The translations under genes and the position numbers were made by a program. The notes under the pieces were generated by a model. It made no database searches, was not told where the DNA came from, and saw nothing but the letters and a program-made list of their open reading frames with translations. Below, piece after piece: positions 29,097 through 31,535 of a stretch of 33,492 nucleotides of DNA (positions are counted from its first letter, which is position 1; the number at the start of each line of letters is the position of its first letter). The DNA is from a virus (taxonomy: Duplodnaviria; Heunggongvirae; Uroviricota; Caudoviricetes), in the IMG/VR virus record IMGVR_UViG_2660238642_000001; one strand, written 5' to 3'.

Positions 29097-31535
29097 CAAT
29101 GTAAAATTACAGGTATTGCTCAGGGCTGTTGACCAGGCATCCCGCCCGTTTAAATCCATCCGTACAGCGAGCAAGTCGCTGTCGGGGGATATCCGGGAAA
29201 CACAAAAATCACTGCGCGAGCTGAACGGTCACGCATCCCGTATTGAGGGATTCCGCAAGACCAGTGCACAGCTCGCCGTGACTGGTCATGCATTTGAAAA
29301 GGCTCGACAGGAAGCCGAAGCCCTTGCCACACAGTTTAAAAACACCGAACGTCCGACCCGTGCTCAGGCGAAAGTGCTGGAATCCGCAAAGCGTGCGGCG
29401 GAGGACTTACAGGCGAAATATAACCGCCTGACAGATTCCGTTAAACGCCAGCAGCGAGAACTGGCCGCTGTGGGAATTAATACCCGCAATCTTGCACATG
29501 ATGAGCAGGGACTGAAAAACCGTATCAGTGAAACCACCGCACAGCTTAACCGTCAGCGTGACGCGCTGGCGCGTGTCAGTGTACAACAGGCAAAACTTAA
29601 CGCAGTCAAACAGCGTTATCAGGCAGGAAAGGAACTGGCCGGAAATATGGCCTCAGTGGGCGCTGCCGGTGCGGGGATTGCTGCTGCGGGAACGATGGCC
29701 GGAGTTAAGCTGCTGATGCCCGGTTATGAGTTTGCGCAGAAAAACTCAGAATTGCAGGCCGTGCTCGGAGTGGCAAAAGACTCCGCCGAAATGACCGCAC
29801 TCCGCAAACAGGCGCGCCAGCTCGGTGACAACACAGCCGCCTCGGCGGATGATGCGGCCGGTGCGCAGATTATCATTGCGAAAGCGGGTGGAGATGCTGC
29901 GGCTATTCAGGCGGCAACGCCGGTCACGCTGAATATGGCACTGGCGAATCAGCGGTCGATGGAAGAAAACGCGCAACTGTTGCTGGGGACTAAGGCATCC
30001 TTTCAACTGTCAAATGATGATGTCAGCCATGTGGGCGACGTGTTGTCTGCAACGATGAATAAGTCGGCGCTGATTTTCAGGGACTCAGTGATGCACTGAC
30101 TTACCTCGGGCCGGTTGCGAGGACGGCAGGCGTAAGTCTTGAGCAGGCAGCGGCCATGACAGGTGTGCTGCATGACAATAACATCAGGGGGTCAATGGCG
30201 GGTACGGGTAGTAGTGCCGTTGTCACCCGATTACAGGCACCGACTGGAAAAGCATGGGATGCACTCAAAGAGCTTGGCGTTAAAACCTCGGACAAAAAGG
30301 GAAATATGCGTCCGTTGTTCACCATTCTGAAAGAGATTCAGGCCAGCTTTGATAAACACAAGCTGGGAACGTCTCAGAAGGGGGAATACCTTAAAACCAT
30401 TTTTGGTGAGGAAGCCCTGAAATCAGCGAACGTTTTACTGGCAGCGGCAGCAAGCGGAAAACTGGATAAGCTGACCGCCACGCTGAAAGCCTCGGACGGT
30501 AAAACGGAAGAGCTGGTTAAAATCATGCAGGATAACCTCGGCGGTGACTTTAAGGAGTTTCAGTCCGCTTATGAGGCGGTGGGGACTGACCTGTTTGACC
30601 AGCAGGAAGGCGCACTGCGTAATCTCACGCAGACGGCCACAAAGTATGTGTTAAAACTCGACGGCTGGATCCAGAAAAACAAATCACTGGCGTCAACCAT
30701 CGGCATCATTGTCGGTGGTGCACTGGCACTGATTGGTGTCATCGGTGCCATTGGCCTCGTAGCCTGGCCGGTTATCACCGGCATCAATGCCATCATCGCG
30801 GCAGCAGGCGCAATGGGGGCAATCTTCACGACGGTTGGCAGTGCTGTTATGACCGCCATCGGGGCGATTAGCTGGCCGGTTGTGGCCGTGGTGGCCGCCA
30901 TTGTCGCCGGGGCGTTGCTTATCCGTAAATACTGGGAGCCTGTCAGCGCATTCTTTGGCGGTGTGGTGGAAGGGCTGAAAGCGGCATTTACGCCGGTGGG
31001 GGAACTGTTCACGCCACTTAAACCGGTGTTTGACTGGCTGGGTGAAAAGTTACAGGCCGCGTGGCAGTGGTTTAAAAACCTGATTGCCCCGGTCAAAGCC
31101 ACCCAGGACACCCTGAACCGTTGCCGTGACACGGGCGTCATGTTCGGGCAGGCACTGGCTGACGCGCTGATGCTGCCGCTTAATGCGTTCAACAAACTGC
31201 GCAGTGGTATTGACTGGGTACTGGAAAAACTCGGTGTTATCAACAAAGAGTCAGACACACTTGACCAGACCGCCGCCAGAACTCAAGCCGCCACGTATGG
31301 CAGCGGTGGTTATATTCCGGCGACCAGCTCTTATGCAGGTTATCAGGCTTATCAGCCGGTCACGGCACCGGCTGGCCGCTCTTATGTAGACCAGAGTAAA
31401 AACGAATATCACATCAGCCTGACGGGTGGTACTGCGCCGGGGACACAGCTCGACCGCCAGTTACAGGATGCGCTCGAAAAATACGAGCGGGATAAACGAG
31501 CGCGCGCCCGTGCCAGCATGATGCATGACGGTTAA
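29089..31535 (+). pseudogene. T: Tail tape-measure protein T, reading frame interrupted
   Basis: Two consecutive ORFs (29089-30099 in frame 1, 30156-31535 in frame 0) together approximate the P2 gpT length (~815 aa). Frame 0 is open from 30063, so a single-base shift between 30063 and 30099 separates the halves. Glycine/alanine-rich hydrophobic repeats typical of tape-measure proteins are in the second half. Confidence 0.6.

Follow-up and report, generated by a model that had tools for sequence, protein, structure and literature searches.

Loss of one base from tape-measure gene T in a P2-like prophage at the pflA-pflB site of Escherichia coli ST131

The tape-measure gene T of a P2-like prophage located between pflA and pflB in Escherichia coli ST131 lacks a single base. 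This deletion is very probably a real, inherited null mutation, which arose after integration of the prophage, was passed on by vertical descent and was followed by further decay. The window, i.e. the whole stretch of 33,492 nucleotides analyzed here, represents a complete P2-like (Peduovirus) prophage that extends from the integrase gene at position 1 to ogr (33274-33492). Its T allele of 2447 nt was found with 100% identity in 18 of 5,426 complete E. coli genomes. The coordinates of the lesion and of the other features discussed are compiled in Table 1.

Position and nature of the lesion in gene T

The first-pass annotation of the window described T as split by a single-base frameshift that lies within ~36 bp. 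Both the map of open reading frames and the alignment with intact T genes bear this out. The first open reading frame comprises 336 codons on the plus strand (29089..30099) and ends with a TGA at 30097-30099, the position already given for it. After a TAA at 30060-30062, the -1 frame is uninterrupted from 30063 up to its stop at 31533-31535. The TGA and the beginning of the open -1 frame thus confine the shift to 30063-30099. Behind the break ~488 native codons continue in the other frame, slightly more than the ~480 estimated before, and the first start codon of this downstream frame is an ATG at 30156.

The alignment to P2-type T genes, which had been proposed as a check, pinpointed one missing G. 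Over 201 bases, the window and the intact T genes of Wphi, P2_4C9 and 11W are separated by one gap, which falls at 30069. The relatives read TCGGCGGCTGAT at this site and the window reads TCGGCGCTGAT. The missing base is one G of a GG pair, so that GCGGCT has become GCGCT with a lone G at 30069, and it is located inside GCGCTGATTTTCAGG, the string that had been singled out earlier. Insertion of one G yields an open reading frame of 2448 nt and 815 codons that contains a terminal stop only and equals the relatives in length. Neither a second stop nor a second indel occurs in the repaired gene. The 3' part is likewise free of extra stops and indels, and its changes with respect to intact alleles are mostly synonymous. 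The lesion is a specific defect in a conserved gene rather than a chance pattern. The T gene of phage 11W (OM475429.1; L002:2329), which is recorded as two coding sequences, was considered as a parallel and rejected, as this split is caused by an inserted ambiguous 'N' and is an artefact of the record.

Table 1. Coordinates of features in the tail operon, the tail-fibre module and the cargo regions, numbered according to the window.
Feature	Position	Strand	Remarks
Tail-chaperone pair E / E+E'	28669..29096	+	E alone 28669-28944; Wphi annotation, PGAP GpE family call
Tape-measure pseudogene, homologue of P2 gene T	29089..31535	+	2447 nt vs 2448 nt in intact relatives
5' fragment of T	29089..30099	+	327 native plus 9 out-of-frame codons (LIFRDSVMH), then TGA; ORF reading
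3' part of T, -1 frame	30063..31535	+	Native codons 328-815; earliest possible start ATG 30156
Site of 1-bp deletion	30067..30070	+	Window GCGC vs intact GCGGC; single G at 30069; alignment
U_UUC_AGG in mutant zero frame	30075..30081	+	Sole candidate for leaky -1 slippage in the P site; speculative
ISCro1 in tail-fibre gene H	22696-22704		REF1
ISCro1 in H, ISCro1 itself hit by IS4	24200-24211		OZ038879
ISEc12 in tail-fibre assembly gene G	24313-24320		CD306, both LS4 records, REF1; annotation
PADLOC candidate defence family PDC-M18 A/B	6291-7451, 7453-7959		A-Q hotspot
PADLOC candidate defence family PDC-S31	8032-8808		A-Q hotspot
Cargo ORF annotated DUF6650	26103-26579		No PADLOC match

Identity of gene T and consequences of the break

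Family profiles, sequence identity and operon position agree with the earlier assignment of the split gene to P2-type T. T matches its Peduovirus counterparts (Wphi, P2 and others) at 97-98% identity, as does the 3-kb region that spans FII-E-E'-T-U, across which 3001 bases of the window align to 3002 bases in Wphi, P2 and other peduoviruses. The gene order FI-FII-E-E'-T-U-D-ogr is shared by the window and annotated relatives, with T positioned after the chaperone pair and before U/D. In intact relatives T is a single gene of 2448 nt and 815 codons.

The protein encoded by the repaired gene contains PF10145 'phage-related minor tail protein' at residues 239-440 (152 bits, cut-off 33.2) as its sole Pfam domain. 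The two fragments score 106 and 219 bits against TIGR01760 (cut-off 28.8), the 5' fragment covering profile positions 2-134 and the 3' fragment positions 131-347. The location of PF10145 and the division of TIGR01760 at 134/131 indicate that the break after codon 327 lies in the middle of a conserved domain. The window gene resembles those for gpT of P2 and Wphi (815 aa; PF10145, TIGR01760) in nucleotide sequence (~97% identity), in its operon slot and, once the G is restored, in length, but differs from them in that its frame is broken past codon 327. In P2, gpT is the tape measure and is located in the lumen of the tail tube (bioRxiv 10.64898/2026.09.14.750843). The break removes residues 328-815, including a long hydrophobic segment and the C-terminus, and a product re-initiated at the ATG at 30156 would miss native residues 328-356. 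The full-length, uninterrupted ruler frame of 815 aa is split at codon 327 in the window. Judged by its sequence, the window T is a pseudogene derived from a member of the tape-measure family and not a functional member. The ratio of synonymous to nonsynonymous differences from P2_4C9 is 24:3 upstream and 23:8 downstream of the break; these counts are too low, and the differences are older than the lesion, so that they are uninformative with respect to relaxed selection.

Search for translational recoding

The first-pass annotation attributed programmed frameshifting to the upstream E/E' pair. This attribution holds, as the corresponding gene of Wphi is annotated 'E+E', -1 translational frameshift', PGAP assigns a GpE family protein to the corresponding position, and the slippery site GGTTTTTTG is intact at 28915-28923. 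The same kind of signal was sought in T, where the zero-frame overlap 30063-30099 reads TCG GCG CTG ATT TTC AGG GAC TCA GTG ATG CAC TGA. A heptamer of the type X_XXY_YYZ is absent from the zero frame of this overlap, which offers only the single-tRNA motif U_UUC. A stimulatory RNA structure was not detected in the 82 nt at 30079-30160, which fold with -27.8 kcal/mol compared to a mean of -26.4 kcal/mol for shuffled sequences (z = -0.49); 63 of 200 shuffled versions were equally or more stable. The two-frame layout is also absent from Wphi, P2_4C9, G749 and OX637964, all of which possess a single T frame of 2448 nt, and the intact 41-mer is present in 254 genomes versus 18 for the deleted 40-mer. 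The missing heptamer, the unremarkable fold and the lack of conservation in relatives led to the rejection of a programmed frameshift in T. The break does share the -1 direction with the programmed frameshifts of tail chaperones (lambda G/GT; P2 E/E+E'), and the P2 pair is part of the same operon. In contrast to the E/E' site, however, it has neither a slippery heptamer nor a stimulator and does not occur in relatives.

A leak that is not programmed might still restore some gpT. Rare ribosomes could slip by -1 at U_UUC_AGG, when tRNA-Phe moves from UUC to UUU while the rare codon AGG occupies the A site. The result would be a full-length gpT altered only at A328L and D329I, and a low yield of tailed particles. 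The frame required is indeed -1, U_UUC permits P-site re-pairing to UUU, and the remainder of the window prophage is intact. tRNA for AGG is sparse in E. coli, and slippage is promoted when the codon in the A site is read slowly (PMC5009743). A precedent is provided by the compensatory low-level frameshifting in herpesvirus thymidine kinase, where null indels in G-runs, referred to as 'savior indel' mutants, are partly suppressed in translation (PMC5009743); in principle the same could apply here. The herpesvirus cases, however, concern long homopolymer runs with measured slippage, whereas the window T has no such run and offers no more than a lead. The canonical heptamer and a fold better than that of shuffles are both missing, no Shine-Dalgarno-like stimulator is evident just upstream of the site, and slow A-site codons favour +1 over -1 shifts (Atkins et al. 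2016, PMC5009743). In addition, the sequence equals the wild type minus one base, with nothing evolved for slippage, the allele is absent from phage records, and sub-lineages have further lost H and G. We consider such a leak improbable. The same low probability applies to its extension, in which the deletion would act as an attenuator: rare tRNA-Phe slippage would supply near-native gpT and a trickle of infectious particles from a prophage that would otherwise serve ST131 clade B chiefly as a stable vehicle for candidate defence genes.

Accuracy of the sequence and the possibility of a two-part tape measure

Two explanations were originally offered for the split gene, an artefact of sequencing or assembly and a real inactivating mutation. 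The latter has stood and the former has not, given the recurrence in 18 genomes and four contigs, a read-validated carrier and the reading of GG in the same context elsewhere. If the deletion were an artefact, the true genome would contain GG and an intact T. Candidate errors of this kind are found among the copies: the window has eight A at 25330-25337 where every other copy has seven, a difference typical of sequencing error, and SaT040 shows private deletions in runs of seven and six G. The indels of the prophage that are private to one assembly are located in G7, G6 and A8 runs, whereas the deletion in T lies in the context gtcggcGctgat, which is neither a homopolymer nor a simple repeat.

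A 40-mer spanning the deletion was detected in exactly the same 18 of the 5,426 E. coli genomes that carry the 2447-nt allele; it was absent from all 50,697 phage records. These carriers were sequenced by different laboratories on different platforms. The window is a further independent copy outside these 18 RefSeq genomes, from all of which it differs by the one extra A at 25330-25337. An exact 33-mer scan recovered the deleted allele from four IMG/VR contigs (two from isolate genomes, two from metagenome datasets); an exact-pattern scan of metagenome contigs gave zero matches and is uninformative. The intact 41-mer with GG in identical context is present in 254 E. coli genomes, which shows that the motif is not systematically miscalled. 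Validation at the level of reads covers one carrier, CCUG 73778, whose Illumina/ONT hybrid assembly showed zero variants between reads and assembly at ~200x Illumina coverage (PMC7355845). Among the 5,426 E. coli genomes there is no intact copy of the same T allele: all records with at least 99% identity carry the deletion, and intact alleles come no closer than 97.7%. PGAP labels the gene 'phage tail tape measure protein, frameshifted' in SaT040, CD306, LS4, OZ038879, REF1 and CU568-3. Sequencing or assembly error was rejected on the basis of the recurrence in independent assemblies, the non-repetitive context, the reads of CCUG 73778 and the 254 genomes with GG, and is hardly credible.

It is just as hard to believe that an N-terminal product of 336 aa and a C-terminal product re-initiated at 30156 work together as a split tape measure: both frames are still open and conserved, but this is explained by a recent lesion with ~five SNPs among all copies, while the break lies within one conserved domain, re-initiation would drop native residues 328-356, every intact relative has a single chain of 815 aa, and a length ruler requires one continuous chain.

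Carriers, integration site and descent

The prophage is located between pflA and pflB in all six carriers inspected (SaT040, CD306, LS4, OZ038879, REF1 and CU568-3), with only the pflB side seen in SaT040 and REF1. In the left flank of 7 kb, four carriers and two further strains of ST131 are separated by 0-1 SNP. The prophage copies show 0-5 changes with respect to the window and ~five SNPs in total. In the carriers examined, the same lesion is thus found at the same site with near-identical flanks, as expected for vertical descent. All carriers that have been described in papers belong to ST131. These include SaT040, the reference for ST131 clade B (fimH22), S21EC and S22EC of ST131 clade B, CD306 of ST131 H30S, and CCUG 73778 of ST131-O25b (PMC7355845).

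The pflA-pflB site is occupied by other P2-like prophages in the ST131 strains G749 and OX637964, where T is intact with 2448 nt. Their cargo consists of DUF7380 and a RES NAD+ phosphorylase, and of HEPN and an AAA ATPase/DUF4435, respectively. The intergenic site looks like a hotspot for the swapping of prophages inside one clone. A second, more divergent prophage of the P2 family resides ~7 kb away between serS and dmsA in some carriers. It was seen in CD306 (989000-1025000) and at the left ends of loci L010 and L009 (OX637964); in CD306 it encodes an intact tape measure of 935 aa and a frameshifted integrase; CU568-3 and OZ038879 are devoid of it. The chromosome records of REF1 and USVAST219 have their position 1 exactly at replication gene A of the prophage, probably since a start-fixing step during assembly mistook this phage gene for the start gene of a chromosome or plasmid. 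The 'ST131 tailocin' (BMC Biology 2022, PMC9205054) was also considered. Its regions are equated with ST131 prophages 2 and 5, no link to the present locus was established, and it was set aside.

Further lesions in sub-lineages

Additional inactivating lesions in virion genes are nested among the carriers of the T deletion. These are the insertion of ISEc12 in the tail-fibre assembly gene G and two insertions of ISCro1 in the tail-fibre gene H (Table 1). ISEc12 in G is also indicated for CCUG 73778 and IMG/VR contig L016, in both cases by match pattern only (a two-piece match for CCUG 73778). CD306, LS4 and REF1 have the SNP 17380 C>T in common. These three and IMG/VR contigs L013 and L016 are 2 bp shorter in a (TG)n microsatellite at 25914-25922 in the G-FI cargo region. 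The microsatellite change together with the SNP provides a marker for the ISEc12 sub-lineage.

SaT040 harbors a private frameshift in the run of six G at 23140 in the H/G module. Every secondary lesion of a sub-lineage, namely two ISCro1, one ISEc12 and the SaT040 frameshift, falls in the tail-fibre module H/G, which makes up ~10% of the prophage. This clustering may be due to target preference of the insertion sequences, to selection or to chance.

The window copy contains none of these insertions. Its other P2-type virion, lysis and replication frames have the same lengths as the genes that PGAP calls intact in the 99.99% identical copy of CU568-3. The nested lesions represent the pattern expected of a non-propagating prophage under relaxed constraint.

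Cargo genes

The hotspots A-Q and G-FI of the prophage carry genes that are foreign to P2. Two PADLOC candidate defence families, PDC-M18 A/B and PDC-S31, are encoded in the A-Q hotspot, and their genes are intact in all annotated copies inspected. A PADLOC search of the other cargo frames tested, among them 9212-9631 and the DUF6650 frame, gave no match.

The run of eight A at 25330-25337 of the window, which contains seven in the 18 RefSeq genomes and in the IMG/VR contigs covering it, lies in a frame on the minus strand. It changes WP_001576671.1 from 125 aa to 115 aa with a different C-terminus, the frame extending over 25313-25660 in the window and 25283-25660 in the other copies. Since the extra A is private to the window and located in a homopolymer, either an error of sequencing or a mutation by slippage may account for it.

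The first-pass annotation suggested that the cargo islands of a tail-defective prophage would be maintained by selection for host benefit. This is plausible, and cargo genes have remained intact while sub-lineages gained insertions in tail-fibre genes. Two of the ~five SNPs among the copies alter cargo proteins, however, and the window has its own frameshift in one cargo frame; the small total of SNPs provides no statistical power to infer selection on the cargo.

Proposed history and implications

For the inherited null deletion favoured here, the simplest history is the following. A single lysogenisation between pflA and pflB would have taken place in the ancestor of part of E. coli ST131. 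The loss of one base, from GCGGCT to GCGCT at 30069, would have followed, and the deleted T has since been inherited clonally. The deletion is placed after integration, because a phage without tails could not have infected the cell.

Translation ends after 327 native and 9 junk residues, which cuts the ruler at 40% of its length. A tape-measure ruler must be one continuous chain in the tail tube. A truncated gpT should therefore abolish normal tail assembly, and from the role of gpT the prophage would be expected to form neither functional tails nor infectious particles. The absence of the allele from the 50,697 phage records lends this indirect support. If derepressed, it would presumably still package heads and lyse the cell. 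Low-level suppression, or complementation by a co-resident prophage of the P2 family such as that of CD306 with its 935-aa tape measure, may modify this outcome.

P2-type prophages are not known to be SOS-inducible. In the absence of SOS induction, purifying selection on virion genes would be weaker over a long clonal residence. The lesion has the look of neutral decay in a prophage that is seldom induced; IS elements later entered the tail-fibre genes G and H in sub-lineages. Other prophage pseudogenes labelled as frameshifted by NCBI PGAP likewise combine a single-base indel in a structural gene with clonal occurrence and later IS insertions in virion genes. Nothing substantive distinguishes the present case from such ordinary decay, except that the window copy is otherwise complete apart from T.

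The frameshift in T is ordinary prophage decay that is already labelled 'frameshifted' in RefSeq; it opens no new mechanism and has little import beyond bookkeeping. Within these bounds, the frameshift is genuine in one sub-lineage of ST131 and ought not to be 'polished away', and the allele could be used as a lineage marker. With this allele, the prophage at pflA-pflB is probably incapable of making tailed virions. This is relevant when prophages of ST131 are induced or when 'intact' prophages are counted by prediction tools, and for the argument that the candidate defence genes PDC-M18 and PDC-S31 are now fixed host genes.
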